DNA of 64,000 nucleotides from Candidatus Omnitrophota bacterium (GCA_028699255.1 JAQVUX010000003.1:82654-146653), one strand, 5' to 3'. Positions 4,341-58,973 are shown, numbered from the stretch's first letter. Notes: generated by a model not told the origin, from the sequence alone. A program made the numbers and translations.

Positions 4341-4964
4341 ATGCGTATAAATATAGCGATAATAGATTACGGGATGGGAAACTTAAGATCCGTCGTCAAT
4401 GCGTTCAATGTTCTCGGCCATTCTCCGGTCATTGTAAAAGATCCGGGGGATATTCGTAAAGCCGACCGGATCGTATTGCCGGGAGTAGGCGCATTCGGCG
4501 ATGCCATGCGGAACCTGCGCGATGCCGGATGGGTCGAAGTGATGGAAGAAGAGGTGCTGGGTAAAGAGAAACCCTTTTTAGGCATATGCCTCGGTATGCA
4601 ACTATTGGCGACTTTCGGCACCGAGCATGGCAAATGTTCCGGGTTGAACTGGATCCCGGGTAAAGTGATCCGTCTCGGCGAGGGGAAGCCCGGGCTTCGT
4701 GTCCCCCACATAGGCTGGAACGATGTGAGGGTTATAAAAAAAGAAGGCTTGTATGCCGGCCTTCCGGATCCGCAGTCCTTCTATTTTTTGCATAGTTATG
4801 TTCTTGTGCCGGATGATAAAGACATCGTAAGCGGTATCTGCGACTATGAAGGCGATTTTGTTGCCAGTATAAAATTGAAGAATATCTCGGCGATACAATT
4901 CCATCCGGAAAAAAGCCATAAGGCAGGGCTTAAAGTGCTCATGAATTTTCTGAGCGGAAATTGA
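4341..4964 (+). CDS. hisH: Imidazole glycerol phosphate synthase glutamine-amidotransferase subunit HisH-like (WbuY-like, glycan context)
   Basis: 207 aa. GICLGMQLL catalytic Cys, HIGWN, FHPEKS class-I GATase triad motifs. Confidence 0.8.
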   Translation: MRINIAIIDYGMGNLRSVVNAFNVLGHSPVIVKDPGDIRKADRIVLPGVGAFGDAMRNLRDAGWVEVMEEEVLGKEKPFLGICLGMQLLATFGTEHGKCSGLNWIPGKVIRLGEGKPGLRVPHIGWNDVRVIKKEGLYAGLPDPQSFYFLHSYVLVPDDKDIVSGICDYEGDFVASIKLKNISAIQFHPEKSHKAGLKVLMNFLSGN

Positions 4965-29213: not shown

Positions 29214-30341
29214 ATGAGCCTTACAATACGCGTCATCAAAGATTTTGATGAGCTCCTTCCGCTCGGGGAGGGGTGGGATTCCGTCGTTTCTTCCATGGAA
29301 TACCCGATGCCCTTCATTACCCATTCGTATGTGTATCTGGCGCTAAAATATCTTTGCCGGGATAAAAAACTGCACGTAATAACTGCCTGGGACGGCGAAA
29401 AGCTTATAGGCATATTACCATTATACAGGTCATCATACAGGATGGTAAAGGTGTTCAATTTTTCATGTCTGCAGTCCCTTAATGACTGCTCGAATGTTAT
29501 TTGCAGTTTGCGCGACTTAGATAGGGTTCTCACCGCCGTCAAAAAACACCTTGACGATATATCCGCTACGTGGGAGCTTCTTCTCCTGTACAAGTTTCCG
29601 ACGGCTTACAAGACTGTCGAGGCGCTAACCGTTAAACTTGCTGACAGGAATATGTATGCAATTACAAAAACCACCGATGATTCATACTACATAGATATGA
29701 AAGGGAGTTTCGATGAGTATTTCAGAGGATTGAATAAGAAATTCAGGGACAATAGAAGGAATATGAATAATAAAATGTCCCGCGAAGGCAAAGTGGAGTT
29801 CGAGGTAATAACGAAATATGACGCTGTCTCGCTCGATTCTTTCTTTGCTATCGAAGATACCGGGTGGAAAGGAGAAGGGGCCAATTCTATAAAGCTCAGA
29901 AAGCAGGTTGAATATTACAACGAACTTTCTCGGGCATTATCCGAAAAGAAGCACTTATTACTGGCGGTGCTAAAGGTTGGCGGGGAGCCGATAGCGGCTA
30001 TTTACGGGTTTTTGTTCAATGGTATATTCTATTTATCAAAGATAGCGGTGAACTACGCATACCCGGGACATAAGCAGTTTTCGCCCGGCCAGGCCATCCT
30101 ATACCGTTTGATCAAATATTGTTTCGATGAAAAGCTGAAAAGATTTGATTTTTACGGCCCTTTTTATTCATATGAGGCCCATTGGACCCGGAATATAAAC
30201 GAAAAAAAGACGATATTGGTTTTTAACGGAAGAAGAGCCGCAGTAAAGAGTTGCGTTATTCTTAAGAAGAGCAGTGACCTTTTGAAAGCGATATTTTGCA
30301 AAACCGCTGTGGATCAAAAAGTCCCTCATCCCGCCCGGTAA
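29214..30341 (+). CDS. GNAT/FemAB-like acyltransferase (CelD/BioF2-like Acetyltransf_6 domain)
   Basis: 375 aa. The C-terminal half has a GNAT-like fold signature. Confidence 0.5.
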   Translation: MSLTIRVIKDFDELLPLGEGWDSVVSSMEYPMPFITHSYVYLALKYLCRDKKLHVITAWDGEKLIGILPLYRSSYRMVKVFNFSCLQSLNDCSNVICSLRDLDRVLTAVKKHLDDISATWELLLLYKFPTAYKTVEALTVKLADRNMYAITKTTDDSYYIDMKGSFDEYFRGLNKKFRDNRRNMNNKMSREGKVEFEVITKYDAVSLDSFFAIEDTGWKGEGANSIKLRKQVEYYNELSRALSEKKHLLLAVLKVGGEPIAAIYGFLFNGIFYLSKIAVNYAYPGHKQFSPGQAILYRLIKYCFDEKLKRFDFYGPFYSYEAHWTRNINEKKTILVFNGRRAAVKSCVILKKSSDLLKAIFCKTAVDQKVPHPAR

Positions 30342-30413
30342 AGCCCTATTATATTATATTGATTCTTTGTCCTAATCATAATATAATACTGTTCTTGTTA
30401 ATTTTACCGGGAC
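30342..30413 (+). promoter_or_regulatory. Candidate sigma70 promoter with overlapping dyad (TTGATT-17-TATAAT) plus imperfect inverted repeat
   Basis: -35 TTGATT at 30359-30364, 17-bp spacer, -10 TATAAT at 30382-30387. Inverted repeat TATTATATTATATTGATT (30347-30364) / AATCATAATATAATA (30374-30388). Largest AT-rich gap in the cluster. Confidence 0.45.
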
Positions 30414-31250
30414 ATGAGCTCGATGCATATAAATGGCTTAAAAGATACCGAAAAGACCTATAGCCTTTTGTGGTCCAGAACGGCGGATGAGATACCGTAC
30501 AATGGTTATCATTATGCCGCGATGCAGGCGGTTATTAAAGAGCCTATCGTAAGGGGCCGGACAGGCATAGAGGTGGGCTCGGGCAGTGGCTATGATGTAT
30601 GCGCTATGGCCGAAAAGAACCCTTCAGTTAAGTTTATAACCATAGATATTTGCGACGGCATATATGTAACAGCCAAACGGGTTTCGGGGCTAAAAAATGT
30701 TGTTGCTGTAAAAGCTTCGGCATTGGACATTCCCGCGAAGGATGAGAGCTTTGATTTCGCGTATTCATTCGGCGTACTGCATCACACACCGGCTCCAGGT
30801 AAGGGTCTTTCTGAAATATCGCGGGTACTGAAGAGGGGCGGCCCGGCATTCCTCTATCTGTATGAAGATCACTCCGAGAATATTTTTAAATATATTCCGC
30901 TTAAAATAGTAACGTTTGTAAGACGCCTTACCGTTCTCATACCGAAGAGACTGCTTTATGTCCTTGCATGGCTGGCATCGCCTTTTGTCTATATTATCTT
31001 TACCGTTCCGTCGAAGATACTGGCGAAATTCGCTTCTACAAAACATGTGGCGGGCCAGATGCCGTTCAATTTCGGCGCCGGGCCATTTTCGCTACGGGGA
31101 GATATTTATGATAGATTTGCCGCGCCGATAGAATACAGATTTTCCAGGCAGGGTGTTCGGGATATGTTCGCAAAATGTGGATTTAAAGATATAGAGATTA
31201 CCAGGTTGCGTGATACGGCGGGTTGGGTAGTATGGGGGTATAAAGCGTAA
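30414..31250 (+). CDS. Class I SAM-dependent methyltransferase with C-terminal membrane segment
   Basis: 278 aa. IEVGSGSGYD motif I, VLKRGGPAF. Confidence 0.65.
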   Translation: MSSMHINGLKDTEKTYSLLWSRTADEIPYNGYHYAAMQAVIKEPIVRGRTGIEVGSGSGYDVCAMAEKNPSVKFITIDICDGIYVTAKRVSGLKNVVAVKASALDIPAKDESFDFAYSFGVLHHTPAPGKGLSEISRVLKRGGPAFLYLYEDHSENIFKYIPLKIVTFVRRLTVLIPKRLLYVLAWLASPFVYIIFTVPSKILAKFASTKHVAGQMPFNFGAGPFSLRGDIYDRFAAPIEYRFSRQGVRDMFAKCGFKDIEITRLRDTAGWVVWGYKA

Positions 31251-41991: not shown

Positions 41992-42822
41992 GTGCCGAAG
42001 CAAAGATTGTCCGTAGTTGTATTGACCAAGAACGAAGCGCGCAACATCGAGCGCTGTCTTGAAAGCGTCAGGTGGGCCGACGAGATAATCGTGATCGACG
42101 ACAATTCCTCCGACGCCACCACCCGGATAGCCAAGCGGTATACCGATAACGTGGTGGTGCATTCGCTTGTCGATAACTTTTCCGCTCAAAGGAACCTGGG
42201 TTCGGAAAACGCCTCCGGCGACTGGATACTGCAGATGGACGCGGATGAGCGTGTTACTGACGAGCTCAAGGCGGCGATAATGGGGATACTTGAAAATGGA
42301 ACTCCGTTTTCGGCGTTCAGATTCCGGAGGGTCAATAATTTTTGCGGCAGGTTCCTTGCGTCCGGCGGCGAGGATAAACACCGGCCTCTGCGGCTTTTCA
42401 AAAAAGGGAAAGCGGCATTTTCCGGGGACCGGATACATGAAAAGCTGACAGTAAACGGGCCGATAGGAGACATCGATGCCGCTATGGAGCATTATAATTT
42501 TCCGGATGTGAGCCACTACGTGGAGACTCAGGATTTTTACAGCACCTTGGAGGCGAGGTCGATGTACGAAAAATCGGGTTTGATACCGGAAAAGAAACTT
42601 CGCAGAGAACTTACGATCGAACCGCTTAAGTTATTTTTTAAAATATACATGAAAAAGAAAGGGTATAAAGACGGTATACATGGCCTTGTATTCGCCATGT
42701 TATCGGCCTGGAGACGATTTCTTATATACGCGAAATACTGGGAGATGAACCAGGGATCGTATAAAAATATCGCGTCATTGCGAGGAAGGAGCGAAGCGAC
42801 TGACGAAGCAATCCAAAAATAA
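41992..42822 (+). CDS. GT2 glycosyltransferase, WaaE/KdtX-like (LPS core type), paralogue 1 of 2
   Basis: GTG 41992 with AGGAG RBS. SVVVLTKNEARNIERCLESVRWADEIIVIDDNSSD...DADE. Confidence 0.7.
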   Translation: MPKQRLSVVVLTKNEARNIERCLESVRWADEIIVIDDNSSDATTRIAKRYTDNVVVHSLVDNFSAQRNLGSENASGDWILQMDADERVTDELKAAIMGILENGTPFSAFRFRRVNNFCGRFLASGGEDKHRPLRLFKKGKAAFSGDRIHEKLTVNGPIGDIDAAMEHYNFPDVSHYVETQDFYSTLEARSMYEKSGLIPEKKLRRELTIEPLKLFFKIYMKKKGYKDGIHGLVFAMLSAWRRFLIYAKYWEMNQGSYKNIASLRGRSEATDEAIQK

Positions 42823-42863
42823 GATTGCTTCGTCGGCCTTCGGCCTCCTCGCAATGACGACGA
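42773..42863 (+). repeat. Nested-hairpin repeat element, copy A (outer CGTCATTGCGAGG/CCTCGCAATGACG; inner GACGAAGCAATC/GATTGCTTCGTC)
   Basis: Read directly. Overlaps the last 16 codons and stop of the upstream gene. Ends 14 nt before the carbamoyltransferase start. Confidence 0.6.
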
Positions 42864-42877
42864 TGGAGTAGTAACGT

Positions 42878-44587
42878 ATGAATATACTTGGATTCGGAGG
42901 GCCGTTTTTCCTGCATGATCCGGCCGCGGCTATTGTGATCGACGGAAAAGTTGTCGCCGCCGCGGAAGAGGAGCGGTTCATAAGACAAAAGCACGCGGTG
43001 GGAAAACCTTGCCTGCGGTCGATAGAGTTTTGCCTTAATGAGGCCGGCATATCGGCAAAAGAGATAGACGCCGTAGCGTTCCCGTGGTCGTTTACGGCCT
43101 TTAACGCCGGGAAGTGGCCGTATGCGCTCAAGACGCTTCTTTCGGAGCCGTCGCGCGCGTATAAGGCCATAGCAAAGGCTCCGAAACTTTGCGCCGGAAC
43201 AAAAAAGAATGTCCGTGATACATTGCGCCATTTCGGTATCGAGCTTCCGCCCGAGAAGATATTTTTCGTCGAACATCACATAGCCCACGCCGCCAGCGCC
43301 TATCTATTATCCGGCTTCGAAGAAGCGGCCATAATGTCGATAGACGGATCGGGTGAGTTTACCTCGACATTATTCGCTGAAGGCAAAGACGGGAAGATAA
43401 AGAAGATAAAAGAGATATTCCTGCCGGATTCCTTAGGCAGGTTCTACTCGACCATGACGGCTTATCTCGGATTCGATCCCAACGACGGCGAATACAAGCT
43501 TATGGGCATGGCGCCGTACGGCGATCCTTCGAAGGCCGACCTCTCGGGCATTATTTTCAGCGACGGTAAAAGTTTTCACACGAATCCGGAATACGTCTGG
43601 CCGATAAGTTCGCGCAGGTATTGCAAAGACGCTATGATACCGAAGAAACTTGTGGCCAGGTTCGGCCCGCCCAGGACCGGGGACGAATTGCGCGAGCCGT
43701 ATATACATATAGCCGCCGCGACTCAGAAGATATTCGAGGATATAGTTATAACTTTAATGCACCACCACCTGGGTGACACATTGCGGAGAACGGGTAATCT
43801 CGCGTTTGCCGGAGGATGCGCGCTGAACGTATCGCTGAACCGAAAGCTCGTTACTGATCCGCTTGTTCGGAATATTTTCGTACAGCCGGCTTCACATGAC
43901 GCGGGCACACCTCTGGGCGCGGCTGTCTTTGCCGCCGCGGCTCTTGGCGACAAGATAGCGCCGATGAAGGATGTTTATCTGGGGCCCGGTTATTCGAGCG
44001 CGGAGATCGAATCCGCGTTGAAGCGTCCGGAGATATCCTGCAAGGCCTGCGCCGACATAGAGGAAAGCGTGGCTTCTCTTCTGGCCGAAGGCATGGTCGT
44101 CGGATGGTTCCAGGGCAGGATGGAGTTCGGTCCGCGCGCCCTAGGTAACAGGTCGATTCTCGGTAATCCGATGATACCGGGTACCAGCGACCGCATAAAT
44201 GAGATGGTGAAGTTCAGGGAGAAGTGGCGCCCGTTCTGCCCGTCCATATTGAGGGAACATTCCGCGGAGGTGATCGGCAGAGACATGGACGCGCCGTTCA
44301 TGACGCTGAGTTTTCACGCCGCGAAAGAGTGGAAGACGCGTATCCCGGAGGTTGTGCACGTCGACGGCACCATGAGACCGCAGACGGTGAGCCACAGCGA
44401 TAATCCAAGATTTTATAAATTGATAAAACTGTTTTTTAAAAAGACAGGTGTTCCGGTTTTGATAAACACGTCCCTGAACAGAAGGGGCGAACCTATGGTG
44501 GCCAGCCCGGAGGACGCGATAAATATGTATCTCGGTTCCGGGCTGGACCATTTGGCCATAGGAAATTATCTGGTTACAAGGAAATAG
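42878..44587 (+). CDS. Carbamoyltransferase (NodU/CmcH/TobZ family)
   Basis: 569 aa. ILGFGGPFFLHDPAAAIV N-terminus and a HypF/YrdC-like C-terminal half. Confidence 0.8.
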   Translation: MNILGFGGPFFLHDPAAAIVIDGKVVAAAEEERFIRQKHAVGKPCLRSIEFCLNEAGISAKEIDAVAFPWSFTAFNAGKWPYALKTLLSEPSRAYKAIAKAPKLCAGTKKNVRDTLRHFGIELPPEKIFFVEHHIAHAASAYLLSGFEEAAIMSIDGSGEFTSTLFAEGKDGKIKKIKEIFLPDSLGRFYSTMTAYLGFDPNDGEYKLMGMAPYGDPSKADLSGIIFSDGKSFHTNPEYVWPISSRRYCKDAMIPKKLVARFGPPRTGDELREPYIHIAAATQKIFEDIVITLMHHHLGDTLRRTGNLAFAGGCALNVSLNRKLVTDPLVRNIFVQPASHDAGTPLGAAVFAAAALGDKIAPMKDVYLGPGYSSAEIESALKRPEISCKACADIEESVASLLAEGMVVGWFQGRMEFGPRALGNRSILGNPMIPGTSDRINEMVKFREKWRPFCPSILREHSAEVIGRDMDAPFMTLSFHAAKEWKTRIPEVVHVDGTMRPQTVSHSDNPRFYKLIKLFFKKTGVPVLINTSLNRRGEPMVASPEDAINMYLGSGLDHLAIGNYLVTRK

Positions 44588-44590
44588 AGA

Positions 44591-44675
44591 TTATTCTTCG
44601 AGCGAGACGGAATTTTTATCTTCTCGACAAGCTCGAAGAATAAAAATTCCGGCGAGTCGAGAAGCACCTTCTCGC
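44591..44675 (+). promoter_or_regulatory. Interleaved perfect inverted repeats (13, 12, 9 and 6 bp) in the 5' leader of the downstream GT2 gene
   Basis: a 44591-44603 / a' 44631-44643; c 44608-44619 / c' 44640-44651; d 44620-44628 / d' 44656-44664; GAGAAG-CAC-CTTCTC at 44659-44673. RBS GAGGAG follows. Confidence 0.5.
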
Positions 44676-44691
44676 GATGAAGAGGAGATTC

Positions 44692-45708
44692 ATGAACTGC
44701 GATATCATTATACCGATTTGGAACCAGCATGCGCTTACGAAAGATTGCATAGAGTCTGTTTTTAAAAATACCAGAGGCACCGATTACAGGCTGATCCTGG
44801 TGGACAATGCCAGCGATGAAGCGACAAGGGTTTACCTGGAAGGGCTTGGCAAGGCCTGGCCGGCCGAAGTGACCGTGATCAGGAATGAAACTAACCTCGG
44901 ATTTGTAAAAGCGGTGAATAAAGGGATAGCCGTCTCGTCCGCGCCTTACATCTGCCTGCTCAATAACGATACGCTCGTTGCTAAAAATTGGCTTAAAGAG
45001 ATGATGGCAATTGCGGAGTCGGCGGAAGACATCGGCATAGTCAACCCGTCGAGTAATAACCTTGGGCAGAAGAGCGCGCAGGGCGAGCCGCTCGAATCTT
45101 ACGCCGCGCGCATTGCTAAAGACGCGGGGCAATACATAGAGCTGGGCGCCGGCATCGGTTTCTGCATGCTCATAAAACGCAAGGTGATCGAGCGTATAGG
45201 TTCTTTTGACGAAATATACGGTATGGGAAACTTCGAGGATACGGATTTTTCGAGACGGGCGGTACAGGCGGGATACAAGTGCGTGAGGGCGTGCGGGGCC
45301 TACGTCTATCACAGGGAAAATACGTCGTTCGGCAAGGTCAAAACTTTCGATGAGGATTTCAAGCGCAATCGCGAAATATTCGAATTCCGGTGGGGAAAAC
45401 CCAAAAGGCTGGCGTACATCCTCGACAAAGTGGATACCAACCTTCTGAAAAAGATGAACGGCGAGGCGATGGCGTTGGCGCGCGGCGGCAACCGGATATG
45501 GTATTTCATGAAAGAATCGATAGTTGTTCCGAAGCATTCGAACATAATAATAAAATATCTCCCGGAAGGCTGGTTTTATCCCCGGGTCATTTTCGATATT
45601 TTAAAAAAGAAAAAGAAATTCACCGAAATAATTTTAGGGAACGAGAAGGCCGGAAGGGTGCTTTCGTCGTTGAGTTTTATTCACAAAGCGAAGATAAGCT
45701 ATTACTAA
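44692..45708 (+). CDS. GT2 glycosyltransferase with C-terminal extension (paralogue 3 of 4)
   Basis: ATG 44692 after a GAGGAG RBS. CDIIIPIWNQ...VDNAS...LLNNDT. Confidence 0.7.
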   Translation: MNCDIIIPIWNQHALTKDCIESVFKNTRGTDYRLILVDNASDEATRVYLEGLGKAWPAEVTVIRNETNLGFVKAVNKGIAVSSAPYICLLNNDTLVAKNWLKEMMAIAESAEDIGIVNPSSNNLGQKSAQGEPLESYAARIAKDAGQYIELGAGIGFCMLIKRKVIERIGSFDEIYGMGNFEDTDFSRRAVQAGYKCVRACGAYVYHRENTSFGKVKTFDEDFKRNREIFEFRWGKPKRLAYILDKVDTNLLKKMNGEAMALARGGNRIWYFMKESIVVPKHSNIIIKYLPEGWFYPRVIFDILKKKKKFTEIILGNEKAGRVLSSLSFIHKAKISYY

Positions 45709-45713
45709 CTAAC

Positions 45714-45804
45714 CGTCATTGCGAGCCCCGAAAGGGCGAAGCAATCTAAAACGAGATTGCTTCGTCGCCTTACGTTCAGCAATTGGCTCCTCGCAACGAC
45801 GAGC
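45714..45804 (+). repeat. Nested-hairpin repeat element, copy B
   Basis: Same outer arms (CGTCATTGCGAG / CTCGCAACGACG) and inner arms (GCGAAGCAATC / GATTGCTTCG) as copy A. GCCC-CGAAA-GGGC tetraloop hairpin. Fully intergenic, 12 nt before the next start. Confidence 0.6.
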
Positions 45805-55235: not shown

Positions 55236-57239
55236 ATGCCGAAATTTGCCGAGATCGCAGTAGCCCTTCCCGTAGACCGCACGTTCCACTACGCCATACC
55301 TGAAGCATTGTCGAACGACATAGCTGTAGGAAAACGCGTCTTCGTGCCTTTTCAGAATCGCGCGACAGTCGGTTATTGTGTCGGGTTATGCGATGTCGCG
55401 GATGTTAAGGACGTGAAGGCGATAATTTCCATTATCGATAAAGAGCCTCTATTGAGCGAGGAGATGCTCAAACTTACCCGATGGGTAAAGGAGAACTATT
55501 TCTGCTCATGGGGCGAAGCTATCGCGGCCGTTATACCCGCCGGGATAAAGAAGGGTAAGGAATCGATCGGCTCGAGGATAAAAGAAGCGCCCTTGTCTCC
55601 ATCGGAGGAATACGCCCCTTCGAGGCCGCACAGCCTGATGGAAGAGCAGTCGCACGCGTTAAAGTCTGTGATAGAAGCGATCGATAAACATGAGCACAGG
55701 GTCTTCCTCCTGCATGGTATAACGGCGAGCGGCAAGACCGAAGTATATTTACAGGCGATCGAGCACGTGCTTGGCGAGGGGCGGCAGACGATAGTGCTCG
55801 TTCCGGAAATATCGCTTACTCCTCAGACGATCGAGCGTTTTTCCTCGAGGTTCGGCGGCCACGTCGCCGTCATCCATTCGCGTCTCACGGCCGCGAAGAA
55901 GTTCCTGGAGTGGAAGAGGATAAAGGACGGCAAGGCAAATATCGTCGTGGGTGCGCGTTCCGCGGTATTCGCGCCATTCCGCAACCTGGGACTTATCATA
56001 ATAGACGAAGAGCACGAGACTTCCTATAAGCAGGACGATGTGCCGCGTTACCACGCGCGCGATGTCGCCGTGGAACGCGCCCGCATAAATAACTGCCCGC
56101 TTATACTGGGTAGCGCCACCCCGTCCCTGGAATCGTTTTACAAGGCGAAGGCCGGCGAATACAGGCTCGTCCGGCTCACAAAGAGGATCGACGAGCGGTT
56201 ACTGCCGAAGACGAAGATAGTCGATATGAGAATGGAACTTGCCGCGCGCCGGAGAATAATGATATTTTCCAAAGTCCTGCTCGACGCAATTGCCAATATG
56301 CTTTCGGCCGGTAAGCAGGCGATAATATTTTTAAACAGGCGCGGATTTTCGACATATATAAACTGCAAGAAATGCGGGTTCGTGGTTAAATGCAAACGAT
56401 GCGACACGGTAATGGTGTATCATTACGAGACGAAGAAGCTCATATGCCATTATTGCAATTATACGATTAATCCCCCGGATATCTGCCCCAGCTGTAAATC
56501 CGATTACATAAAATATCTGGGGCTCGGTACCGAGAAGGTGGAGAGCGAGATAAGCCGCAGTTTCCCGCACGCGAAGATAGCGAGAATGGATTCGGATACC
56601 ACCACCAAACGCGGTTCGCACGACAGGATACTCGGTGATTTCAAAGCGGGGAAGATAAACCTGCTCGTCGGCACGCAGATGATCGCCAAAGGGCTCGACT
56701 TCCCGGATGTGACTTTAGTAGGTGTCGTTTCGGCGGATGTGAGCCTGAATATCCCGGATTTCAGGGCGAGCGAGCGGACGTTTAACCTGCTTACGCAGGT
56801 CGGCGGCAGGGCGGGCCGCGGAGAAGACGGCGGGGAAGTCGTGATACAGACGTATACGCCGGAGCACTACGCTATAATCGCGGCGGCGAAGCATGATTAT
56901 CAGAAGTTTTACGATGAAGAGATCATTGAGCGTAAAGAGCTGATGTTCCCGCCGTTCATAAGCCTTACAAAGGTTACCGTCCGGGCGAGGAATGACGCGC
57001 TGGCGGCAAAGTCGGCTGAGGAATTGAAGAACGTGATAGCTACGGCCGGCCCTGAGATGCTTATCTCCGGCCCGTCACCGGCGCCGATAACCAGACTGCG
57101 TGGATACTACAGGTACAATATCATATTGAAGCACAAAGAGCGGCTCGTGATGTGCGCGCTCCTCAAAAAAGCGCTCACCGGTTTCCGTCGGCCGCACGGT
57201 GTCCTCATCGCCGTTGACGTCGACCCGGTGTCGATGTAG
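55236..57239 (+). CDS. priA: Primosomal protein N' (replication-restart helicase PriA)
   Basis: 667 aa. Walker A GITASGKTEV, DEEH, Cys-rich zinc module CKKCGF...CKRCD...CHYC...CPSC. C-terminal helicase domain. Confidence 0.9.
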   Translation: MPKFAEIAVALPVDRTFHYAIPEALSNDIAVGKRVFVPFQNRATVGYCVGLCDVADVKDVKAIISIIDKEPLLSEEMLKLTRWVKENYFCSWGEAIAAVIPAGIKKGKESIGSRIKEAPLSPSEEYAPSRPHSLMEEQSHALKSVIEAIDKHEHRVFLLHGITASGKTEVYLQAIEHVLGEGRQTIVLVPEISLTPQTIERFSSRFGGHVAVIHSRLTAAKKFLEWKRIKDGKANIVVGARSAVFAPFRNLGLIIIDEEHETSYKQDDVPRYHARDVAVERARINNCPLILGSATPSLESFYKAKAGEYRLVRLTKRIDERLLPKTKIVDMRMELAARRRIMIFSKVLLDAIANMLSAGKQAIIFLNRRGFSTYINCKKCGFVVKCKRCDTVMVYHYETKKLICHYCNYTINPPDICPSCKSDYIKYLGLGTEKVESEISRSFPHAKIARMDSDTTTKRGSHDRILGDFKAGKINLLVGTQMIAKGLDFPDVTLVGVVSADVSLNIPDFRASERTFNLLTQVGGRAGRGEDGGEVVIQTYTPEHYAIIAAAKHDYQKFYDEEIIERKELMFPPFISLTKVTVRARNDALAAKSAEELKNVIATAGPEMLISGPSPAPITRLRGYYRYNIILKHKERLVMCALLKKALTGFRRPHGVLIAVDVDPVSM

Positions 57240-57244
57240 AATGA

Positions 57245-57440
57245 GGAGGAAAATTTTTCGCTGTAGCGGCAGAATGTGCTGTATCGAGTGGTTTGTTCGG
57301 GACGCGCAATTTTTGGCCATGCAAAAAGTGCGCTCCGTAAAAGTTCTCGTACGCTGCCTCGAACTTTTAAGGCCCTCACAAACCACATCGCCACATCACA
57401 TTTCTGATTGAGCGAAAAATTTTATTGAAGGGCGGGCAGG
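57245..57440 (+). repeat. Tandem structured repeat unit 1 (~196 nt) in the priA-fmt spacer
   Basis: Starts GGAGGAAAATTTTTCG. Hairpin 57304-57333 with loop GCCATG. Conserved CTCGTACGCTGCCTCG. Ends GGGCGGGCAGG. Confidence 0.6.
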
Positions 57441-57449
57441 TAAGGATGG

Positions 57450-57650
57450 GGAGGAAAATTTTTCGTTCCCGGGAGGCATTCCCTCTCGGGGTTGGTATTC
57501 CGCAGGGACGCGAAATTTGTCAGCCATGTGAAAATTTCGCTCGAAAAAAATTGCTCGTACGCTGCCTCGCAATTTTTACGCCCTGCTCCATACCAACCCC
57601 TCGGGGCCCCTTCGACGGGAATCGAAAAATTTCCTGATGGGGCGGGCAGG
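57450..57650 (+). repeat. Tandem structured repeat unit 2 (~201 nt)
   Basis: Same 5' (GGAGGAAAATTTTTCG) and 3' (GGGCGGGCAGG) ends. Hairpin 57510-57540 has the same GCCATG loop but a different, still complementary, stem. Conserved CTCGTACGCTGCCTCG. Confidence 0.6.
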
Positions 57651-57836
57651 GGGCGTTATTGCAACGCGGGCGGAATAACCTCGCAGGTTGGCCAGGTGTT
57701 AGCGTTCAGATAACCTGCGAGGTTGGACGATTAGCGAGAGTAAATTAGCACCAGCGTCCTATTTCCACCCCGGGGTGGAAACATAGACACCTGTGGGAAT
57801 GAAATAGATAAGGTATAATCGTAGAATGCCCGGATA

Positions 57837-57999
57837 GGTGAGGGGACTACGCTTACGCGGCGACGTAAAAATCGCGAGCGGGCATGGTTCCCGAGCCAGG
57901 GTTAGCAGATATGCGAGGGAGAGCGAGCGATTTTTCTCGAGCGACATTTTTCACGCTGGGAAAAATGGAGCGGTCGGCGCGAAGCGTAGTCCCCTCACC
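57837..57999 (+). repeat. 163-bp element bounded by 27-bp imperfect terminal inverted repeats (MITE-like or long stem)
   Basis: 5' arm GGTGAGGGGACTACGCTTACGCGGCGAC (57837-57864). 3' arm GTCGGCGCGAAGCGTAGTCCCCTCACC (57973-57999). 18 bp perfect, then a 1-nt bulge and one mismatch. Interior has A5/T5 hairpins. Confidence 0.55.
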
Positions 58000-58031
58000 C
58001 AGGAGTTGGAAAGAAGAAAGCGGAGCTACGA

Positions 58032-58973
58032 ATGAACATCATATTTTTCGGCACATCAGAGTTCGCGATACCGGCGCTTCGGGCGCTCGTGGCATCCAGT
58101 CATAAGGTACTGGCCGTCGTAACACAACCCGACCGGCCGCGCGGACGGAATCTCAAGGTATCGCCATCGCCCATGAAGGCGTTGGCCGCGGCGAACGATC
58201 TGCCCGTGTTTCAACCCGTCAATGCCTCATCTACGGAGGCAGTTGACTATCTGAGGAAGCTCGGCGCGGATCTCTTCGTCGTCATATCATTCGGCCAGAT
58301 ACTGCGGCAGGACATACTCGCGATCCCCAGGCTGTATGCCGTCAATGTGCACGGTTCGCTTTTGCCCGCGTATCGCGGCGCTTCACCTACCAATCACGCG
58401 ATAATAAACGGCGATAAGACGAGCGGCGTTACGATTATCCGTATGAACGATAAGATGGACGAAGGCGATATAATATTGAAGCGCAAAACGCCGATCGGTT
58501 CGGAAGACACAAATATAACTCTGCACGAAAGGCTCTCGGAAATAGGCGCCTCCGTCCTCATGGAATTAGTCGACGCCCTCGCGAGCGGAAAGGCGGTCGC
58601 TTTTGAAAAACAGGACGACGCTACGGCTACATATGCGCCGAAACTGAAGAAAGAGGACGGCGCCATCGACTGGAATGAACCGGCCGCGAAGATTCATAAC
58701 AAGATCCGCGGCCTTCTGCCGTGGCCCGGCGCGTACACCTATTATAACGGAAAGATACTGAAAGTCCTGAAAGCCGCGCCTGTTTCTTCGGGTGCGGAGG
58801 CCGCAAAACCGGGCGAGGTCGTGAATATCTCCGACGATGCGGGTGTCGTTGTCCGTACGGGCTCAGGGGATATCGTCATGCAATATCTACAGCTCGAGGG
58901 TAAGAAGGATATGACCTCCACCGCATTCGTGCGCGGCCACAGGATCGCCCGCGGGTATACATTCGGTAAATAA
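58032..58973 (+). CDS. fmt: Methionyl-tRNA formyltransferase
   Basis: 313 aa. IIFFGTSEFA, HGSLLPAYRGASP(T)NHAIING motif. C-terminal domain. Confidence 0.85.
   Translation: MNIIFFGTSEFAIPALRALVASSHKVLAVVTQPDRPRGRNLKVSPSPMKALAAANDLPVFQPVNASSTEAVDYLRKLGADLFVVISFGQILRQDILAIPRLYAVNVHGSLLPAYRGASPTNHAIINGDKTSGVTIIRMNDKMDEGDIILKRKTPIGSEDTNITLHERLSEIGASVLMELVDALASGKAVAFEKQDDATATYAPKLKKEDGAIDWNEPAAKIHNKIRGLLPWPGAYTYYNGKILKVLKAAPVSSGAEAAKPGEVVNISDDAGVVVRTGSGDIVMQYLQLEGKKDMTSTAFVRGHRIARGYTFGK

Follow-up and report, generated by a model that had tools for sequence, protein, structure and literature searches.

We found that the 104-nt spacer (44588-44691) between the stop codon of a carbamoyltransferase gene and the start of a GT2 glycosyltransferase gene, in a 64-kb window of Candidatus Omnitrophota DNA (the window being the whole stretch analysed), contains an insert, here called E2. 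With a probability of about 0.6, E2 is a young lineage-specific insertion of ~98 nt, consisting of a 92-nt palindromic core and a 6-bp duplicated GAGATT, which is MITE/REP-like or a remnant and acts as a passive, constitutive intercistronic hairpin. From the sequence we infer a mobile-element origin.

The carbamoyltransferase and GT2 genes that the earlier note had named as the flanks were confirmed by Pfam, and Logan contig L001 yielded an identical carbamoyltransferase protein. Surface-glycan synthesis genes make up a large cluster here, in which Pfam places an epimerase, seven GT2 genes and the carbamoyltransferase; ORFs and Pfam matches over 39.7-50.1 kb were glycan enzymes throughout, and no recombinase gene adjoins E2. 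The window is very compact, with the long ORFs all on one strand and spacers of mostly 0-30 nt. A 72-nt spacer at 30341-30414, among just five spacers >50 nt in the 64 kb, holds an AT-only 11-bp hairpin (TATTATATTAT / ATAATATAATA). A 793-nt non-coding gap was observed at 57239-58032 in the otherwise gap-free genome; it contains two tandem units of ~207 nt (57238-57445 and 57443-57650), dense in inverted repeats, and a perfect inverted repeat of 18 bp (57837-57854 / 57982-57999). Rfam returned no match for this gap, which may represent either a structured ncRNA or a cluster of repeats.

In the ORF list GT2 was given an in-frame ATG at 44677 (ATGAAGAGGAGATTC; 44677-44691), which would prepend MKRRF to the protein. 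The real GT2 start is the ATG at 44692, since every orthologue begins MNCDI and the upstream ATG sits within the insert. The GAGGAG ribosome-binding site lies 4 nt upstream of the ATG at 44692.

The three perfect inverted repeats of 13, 12 and 9 bp described in the earlier note were recovered in exactly the same places, interleaved in the order a-c-d-a'-c'-d' (Table 1). They are real and far beyond chance. When the 104 nt were shuffled 5000 times with dinucleotides preserved, no shuffle gave three perfect repeats of ≥9 bp, 15 gave any perfect repeat of ≥12 bp and 29 gave two of ≥9 bp. Of 3195 real windows across the 64 kb, each 104 nt long, only E2 and an AT-rich hairpin near 30.3 kb contain three. 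E2 is not an assembly artefact, since it is present in three independent assemblies: the sequence is identical in L001 and L172, and the L171 version comes from a 97%-identical strain. The geometry differs in part from the earlier description, which had set a:a' against c:c' and d:d' together. The overlap of a' and c' does make a:a' and c:c' mutually exclusive, while a:a' has no overlap with d:d', and these two would jointly make an H-type pseudoknot. The proposed pseudoknot topology of c:c' and d:d' holds in that the two cross; they do so with a 0-nt linker and therefore cannot both be fully formed. The small hairpin, described as GAGAAG-CAC-CTTCTC, is present with a stem of 7 bp rather than 6. 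Two origins for this arrangement were tried and rejected: for a 25-nt tandem repeat, TRF found nothing and the direct-repeat likeness was confined to TTAT and a pyrimidine run; inversion and nested-insertion models for the a-c-d-a'-c'-d' order, worked by hand, gave no simpler ancestor.

Table 1. Features of the carbamoyltransferase-GT2 junction, substitutions in strain L171 and the same junction in relatives (window positions unless a contig is named).
Feature	Position	Strand	Remark
Carbamoyltransferase gene	42878-44587	+	Pfam Carbam_trans_N + Carbam_trans_C; stop TAG 44585-44587
GT2 glycosyltransferase gene	44692-45708	+	Pfam
E2 core, 92 nt	44593-44684	+	missing from orthologous junctions
Left direct repeat GAGATT	44587-44592	.	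candidate target-site duplication
Right direct repeat GAGATT	44685-44690	.	contributes to GAGGAG ribosome-binding site
Arm a	44591-44603	+	TTATTCTTCGAGC; perfect 13-bp partner of a'; paired with Shine-Dalgarno side instead in MFE fold
Arm c	44608-44619	+	CGGAATTTTTAT; 12 bp, 100% complementary to c'
Arm d	44620-44628	+	CTTCTCGAC; 9 bp, 100% complementary to d'; paired with d' in MFE fold
Arm a'	44631-44643	+	GCTCGAAGAATAA; 100% complementary to a
Arm c'	44640-44651	+	ATAAAAATTCCG; 4-nt overlap with a' (ATAA)
Arm d'	44656-44664	+	GTCGAGAAG; doubles as 5' arm of small hairpin
Small hairpin CGAGAAG-CAC-CTTCTCG	44658-44674	+	7 bp, loop CAC; arms 44658-44664 / 44668-44674
Terminal stem, 5' strand	44589-44610	+	MFE columns 2-23; begins 2 nt past stop codon
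Terminal stem, 3' strand	44667-44690	+	MFE columns 80-103; holds most of Shine-Dalgarno sequence
Shine-Dalgarno region	44679-44687	+	GAAGAGGAG; first six bases paired in free RNA (predicted)
E1	42773-42860	.	previous gene junction; inverted doublet of ATTGCGAG-hairpin-CGAAGCAAT repeat
E3	45713-45802	.	next gene junction; inverted doublet, same family as E1
L171 G>A	44589		outermost terminal-stem pair (with 44690)
L171 A>T	44612		arm c; breaks c:c' pair 25-60
L171 A>T	44639		arm a'; breaks a:a' pair 8-52
L171 C>T	44665		small-hairpin loop
L171 T>C	44690		outermost terminal-stem pair (with 44589)
Junction, L092			spacer 4 nt; no insert
Junction, L095, L096			spacer 5 nt; no insert
Junction, L083-85, L086-88, L169, L170, P0007 contig			spacer 6 nt; no insert
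Junction, L091			spacer 12 nt; no insert
Junction, L142			spacer 17 nt; no insert
Junction, L093/L094	L093 1841-1901 = L094 2440-2500		spacer 61 nt; perfect 16-bp hairpin
Junction, L089	L089 388-462		spacer 75 nt; GC-rich palindrome
Junction, L136	L136 2388-2493		spacer 106 nt; ~36-bp hairpin
Junction, window	44588-44691		spacer 104 nt; E2

Orthologous loci were collected by exact-protein look-ups and one metagenome scan, and the distance from stop to start was measured in each. GT2 orthologues are many in Omnitrophota (60-77% identity). Ten other lineages share the syntenic operon, and in them 4-17 nt, most commonly 6, lie between the carbamoyltransferase stop and the start of GT2. When the window was aligned with five empty junctions, the coding flanks matched well around a single clean 98-column gap. 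The 104-nt leader is therefore the product of a 98-nt insertion, and the interleaved pairing, whose conservation in orthologues the earlier note had proposed to examine, is absent from these ten lineages together with the leader. E2 was inserted into an ancestrally tight junction, originally of ~6 nt and presumably translationally coupled. It was present only in the window, L001, L172 and L171, which are strains ≥97% identical to the window, and is thus restricted to one species-level clade. A GTDB genome scan with the carbamoyltransferase was uninformative on the leader, the best among the matches listed being 55-58% identical and non-syntenic.

The inserts of L089, L093/L094 and L136 are unrelated to E2 and to one another; unrelated hairpin-forming inserts have entered the carbamoyltransferase-GT2 junction on at least four independent occasions. 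A second copy of the L093 hairpin (92%) lies in L135 at 4480-4505, so this hairpin belongs to another dispersed family. In L089, L093/L094 and L136 the inserted hairpin comes after the stop codon and does not include the ribosome-binding site.

The edges of E2 are those of a possible transposition footprint. An edge direct repeat of ≥6 nt was obtained in 291 of 20000 shuffles (p ~0.015), and removal of the core together with one GAGATT leaves TAG-AGATTC-ATG, a 6-nt spacer of the length found in orthologues (compare the empty sites TAG-GAGAAT-ATG of L169 and TAG-GATATT-ATG of L087). The direct repeat rests on one lineage, since it is degraded to AAAATT / GAGATC in L171. The element ends (ATTCTTCGAGCGAGA / TCTCGCGATGAAGAG) make an imperfect terminal inverted repeat (44594-44610 versus 44667-44684), with 13 of 17 aligned positions identical and one small indel, and this repeat forms the terminal stem of the predicted RNA fold. 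It is composed of low-complexity purine/pyrimidine runs, which would pair with any Shine-Dalgarno sequence too.

The leader-bearing relatives L171 and L172 were found by protein cluster look-ups and provide, with the window, only two distinct E2 sequences. L172 is 99.8% identical to the window overall, with an identical E2. L171 is 97.0% identical over 4.5 kb, and there the stop TAG is changed to TAA (44587 G>A) and the spacer carries five substitutions. The breaks in a:a' and c:c' amount to one pair each, with no compensatory change; the three internal changes all fall at positions unpaired in the MFE fold, and the pairs of d:d', the small hairpin and the terminal-stem core are unchanged, only the outermost stem pair being altered. 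In these two sequences a:a' and c:c' are not conserved while the MFE fold is spared, which is suggestive and not decisive. Divergence from L171 was 5/104 (4.8%) in E2, against 37/301 (12.3%) at synonymous sites and 15/184 (8.2%) at four-fold sites, and the Poisson probability of five or fewer changes in E2 was ~0.01 at the synonymous rate and ~0.15 at the four-fold rate. This low divergence could reflect constraint. It is not specific evidence of E2 function, since the neighbouring selfish-type repeat E3 diverges similarly little (3.7% plus one indel).

The MFE fold of the leader (-37.7 kcal/mol) is one long hairpin composed of the terminal stem, d:d' and a small stem at the apex. For the 92-nt core the fold reaches -36.3 kcal/mol (z = -4.6), a stability not equalled in any of 200 shuffles. 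In the ensemble, d:d' and the terminal stem each had a probability of 0.99, and a:a' and c:c' had ≤0.005; when forced, a:a' with the small hairpin gave -33.1 kcal/mol and c:c' with the terminal stem gave -33.3 kcal/mol. The Shine-Dalgarno bases 44679-44684 had unpaired probabilities of 0.00-0.12, so the Shine-Dalgarno sequence is predicted to be sequestered in the MFE fold, with no indication of regulation. Blocking the first 12-18 nt of the spacer in silico raised the mean accessibility of the nine Shine-Dalgarno bases from 0.26-0.28 to 0.48-0.90, and when 15 nt were blocked in the presence of the natural flanks, the MFE fold changed to c:c' plus the small hairpin. In a scan of the leader (terminators on both strands) no terminator-like or promoter-like site was detected, and E2 contains no leader peptide or aptamer-like conserved core. 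A stop-codon readthrough or frameshift signal was rejected, because the in-frame extension stops after 30 codons at TGA (44678-44680), the stop varies between strains (TAG versus TAA) and orthologues are without the spacer.

These folding predictions suggest a coupling mechanism for GT2 translation. E2 would be co-transcribed with the operon and would fold constitutively into one long hairpin, whose base would juxtapose the carbamoyltransferase stop and the GT2 start and bury the GT2 Shine-Dalgarno sequence. A ribosome at the stop (44585-44587) would cover the next ~12-15 nt, which are the 5' strand of the terminal stem, and would thereby free the Shine-Dalgarno sequence, so that GT2 translation would be kept dependent on ribosomes completing the upstream gene. 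The coupling once given by the ancestral 6-nt spacing would thus be preserved, and this may be one reason why a self-folding insert was tolerated. Under such coupling E2 would involve neither ligand sensing nor transcription attenuation. REP hairpins near stop codons affect mRNA stability and translation (PMC12306157), and MITE transcripts form stable stem-loops, the flanking repeats of MITEs decaying over time (PMC10969869). Two effects described for REP and MITE hairpins, a barrier to exonucleases and, near a stop codon, interference with termination (PMC12306157, PMC10969869), would apply to E2 too.

No second copy of E2 was found in the 64-kb window, in 1.15 Mb of related loci or, with blastn, in plasmids. 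Since E2 is a single copy among the sequences searched, multi-copy status, a defining feature of MITEs, is unproven for it. The exact 21-mer of the a'c' junction had zero matches in viral contigs and JGI metagenome contigs; the JGI part of this result is weak and is not proof of absence, because the scan missed the JGI contig L172 (3300037067, Ga0378408_0367290), which was retrieved by protein look-up and contains the 21-mer. E2 had no Rfam match at the gathering threshold in a search of the whole window, three more local Rfam scans, run at E <= 10, gave chance-level matches only, and a literature search with the E2 repeat sequence returned only primers and unrelated papers.

Palindromes also occupy the gene junctions on either side, so that with E1, E2 and E3 three consecutive junctions in this genome are filled. 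E1 and E3 belong to one family with units of the form ATTGCGAG-[hypervariable GC hairpin]-CGAAGCAAT (full ends GTCATTGCGAG...CTCGCAATGAC), often arranged as inverted doublets (REPIN-like). In orthologues the genes at the E1 and E3 junctions overlap or the junction measures 27 nt. The family is dispersed, with 41 nhmmer matches in ~1.15 Mb of fetched loci, and is also present in L124, L128, L135, L111, L130, L131, L123, L134, L144 and L159. Its base-stem motifs ATTGCGA ... GAAGCAAT are the same in every one of 18 units, and the tip hairpin shows covariation; no Rfam entry and no literature match by sequence were found for it. The GT2 gene at 41992-42822 takes its final 14 codons and its stop from E1, half-units of the family directly precede the ATG of distant GT2 orthologues, and one Logan contig starts within E1.

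E2 itself was considered as a diverged member of the E1/E3 family and rejected. The base-stem motifs are missing from E2, the family HMM with filters off gave no match at E <= 1000, and the best local alignment of E1 with E2 was equalled by 129 of 1000 shuffles. The likeness of the E2 3' end (CTCGCGATGAAGA) to the family end (CTCGCAATGACGA) is a 13-mer with 2 mismatches, of which 1.8 such matches are expected by chance.

An MFE fold that leaves a:a' and c:c' unused does not account for their being perfect. These unused repeats, the composition of the a'c' 21-mer and the 12.5-nt spacing of the three dyad centres fit either a template-switch origin with microhomology jumps or selected ribosome-dependent conformers. 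The former, in which E2 was made in place by template switching or fold-back copying with microhomology jumps and is a functionless passenger tolerated through its self-folding, is unlikely. The a'c' 21-mer exactly matches the reverse complement of c fused to a at TTAT, a motif that opens arm a at its 5' end and closes arm c at its 3' end, and the a'/c' overlap thus resembles a microhomology junction. Recent copying would also suit three perfect repeats of which two are unused by the stable fold, the lack of another E2 copy in the sequences searched, and the rise of unrelated hairpins at the same junction in other lineages. Several independent switches would however be required, and no donor for any E2 arm was found in the 64-kb window; moreover, a 6-bp flanking direct repeat with terminal inverted repeats is more typical of transposition, and both adjoining junctions are colonised by a clearly dispersed multi-copy family.

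Selection of the repeats themselves is improbable. E2 would then be a ribosome-actuated three-state RNA device, derived from a recent insertion and re-creating translational coupling, with the repeats as its selected states. According to such a model, the terminal stem and d:d' would conceal the Shine-Dalgarno sequence in free mRNA, a terminating ribosome covering arm a would cause refolding to c:c' plus the small hairpin with the Shine-Dalgarno sequence open, and a:a' would be a co-transcriptional open intermediate.

A regulated RNA switch, in which a signal selects between a:a' (Shine-Dalgarno open) and the terminal stem (closed), with c:c' as a third state, is very unlikely. It would account for competing folds within 4.6 kcal/mol of each other, for an arm a with two predicted alternative partners, a' and the Shine-Dalgarno region, for the predicted earlier formation of a:a' as the RNA is made (the first 63 nt of the leader fold at -21.6 kcal/mol), and for the lower divergence of E2 than of synonymous sites. 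The leader is nevertheless missing from every orthologous junction beyond one species-level clade, a:a' and c:c' are both broken without compensation in L171, and a single fold dominates the equilibrium ensemble. The attenuator or riboswitch-like expression platform suggested in the earlier note falls on these same observations, among them the lack of conserved pairing in orthologues that the note had itself named as a refutation, together with the absence from the leader of terminator-like and promoter-like sites, a leader peptide, an aptamer-like core and an Rfam family (E <= 10).

The alternative suggestion of that note, a recombination-site remnant, comes near the favoured reading as far as an insertion footprint is meant, and is disfavoured as a DNA-level recombinase site. 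Surface-polysaccharide operons are often phase-variable in other bacteria. A binding or crossover site for a recombinase, invertase or regulator (a phase-variation switch or an integron attC-like site) is nonetheless highly implausible here: in its favour are the large surface-glycan cluster, rich in GT2 genes, six occurrences of the motif YTTCTYCGAS in both orientations and the even spacing of the dyad centres of the three repeats (12.5 nt apart, from the coordinates), but the inter-repeat segments of 20-27 bp are too short for an invertible promoter and contain no promoter-like site, the three repeat pairs differ in sequence so that no single recombinase core is repeated, no attC-type cores (RYYYAAC ... 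GTTRRRY) were found in 44560-44700, the orientation is the same in all four assemblies, and the adjoining genes include no recombinase.

The favoured reading, a young MITE/REP-like insertion, can be set beside known systems. Like the MITEs represented by the Correia elements of Neisseria and the QMITEs of Coxiella (PMC10969869, PMC2649163, PMC2229807), E2 is ~100 nt long and non-coding, has inverted repeats at its ends and is bounded by a short direct repeat, a candidate target-site duplication; MITEs are likewise intergenic and co-transcribed, form a stable stem-loop able to alter adjacent gene expression and have empty sites in relatives. Unlike MITEs, E2 has one known copy, its terminal repeats are short and imperfect (13/17), its interior perfect repeats are interleaved and not nested, and no parent IS element or transposase was identified; its flanking repeat is 6 bp, against the TA of Correia elements. 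With REP/BIME and REPIN sequences (PMC12306157, PMC3184786) E2 shares a palindrome directly 3' of a stop codon within an operon, where mRNA structure is expected to affect stability and translation, and both junctions flanking E2 carry REPIN-like doublets. REPs differ from E2 in being ~35-nt units that follow a family consensus and number tens to hundreds. E2 has no significant sequence similarity to the local family, and no RAYT gene was seen in the window.

Long-range mRNA structure couples translation in the coat-replicase region of RNA phage MS2 and in the infC-rpmI-rplT operon of E. coli. As in those systems, the downstream Shine-Dalgarno sequence at E2 is predicted to be paired with sequence inside the ribosome footprint of the upstream stop; in contrast to them, the structure came by insertion into a junction presumably already coupled by 6-nt spacing. 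Riboswitch and attenuator platforms resemble E2 in having mutually exclusive helices, one of them hiding the ribosome-binding site, whereas E2 has no aptamer, terminator, leader peptide, covariation or Rfam match and no conservation beyond one species. Unlike integron attC, E2 has no core sites, and its flanking genes are a conserved syntenic pair rather than cassettes.

In conclusion, a false riboswitch/attenuator lead was removed, and the case shows that an insertion confined to one species can look like a switch. The perfect matching of the E2 repeats and their interleaved order may preserve the signature of the birth of a palindrome. If the three-state device were true, the repeated capture of unrelated hairpins at this junction would reflect selection for structured spacers. 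The evolutionary interest lies in one coupled junction of an Omnitrophota glycan operon that has been colonised at least four times, in a genome where three consecutive junctions are so occupied. If the coupling model is true, E2 would be a natural case of a self-folding insertion tolerated or co-opted in a coupled operon of an uncultivated phylum.
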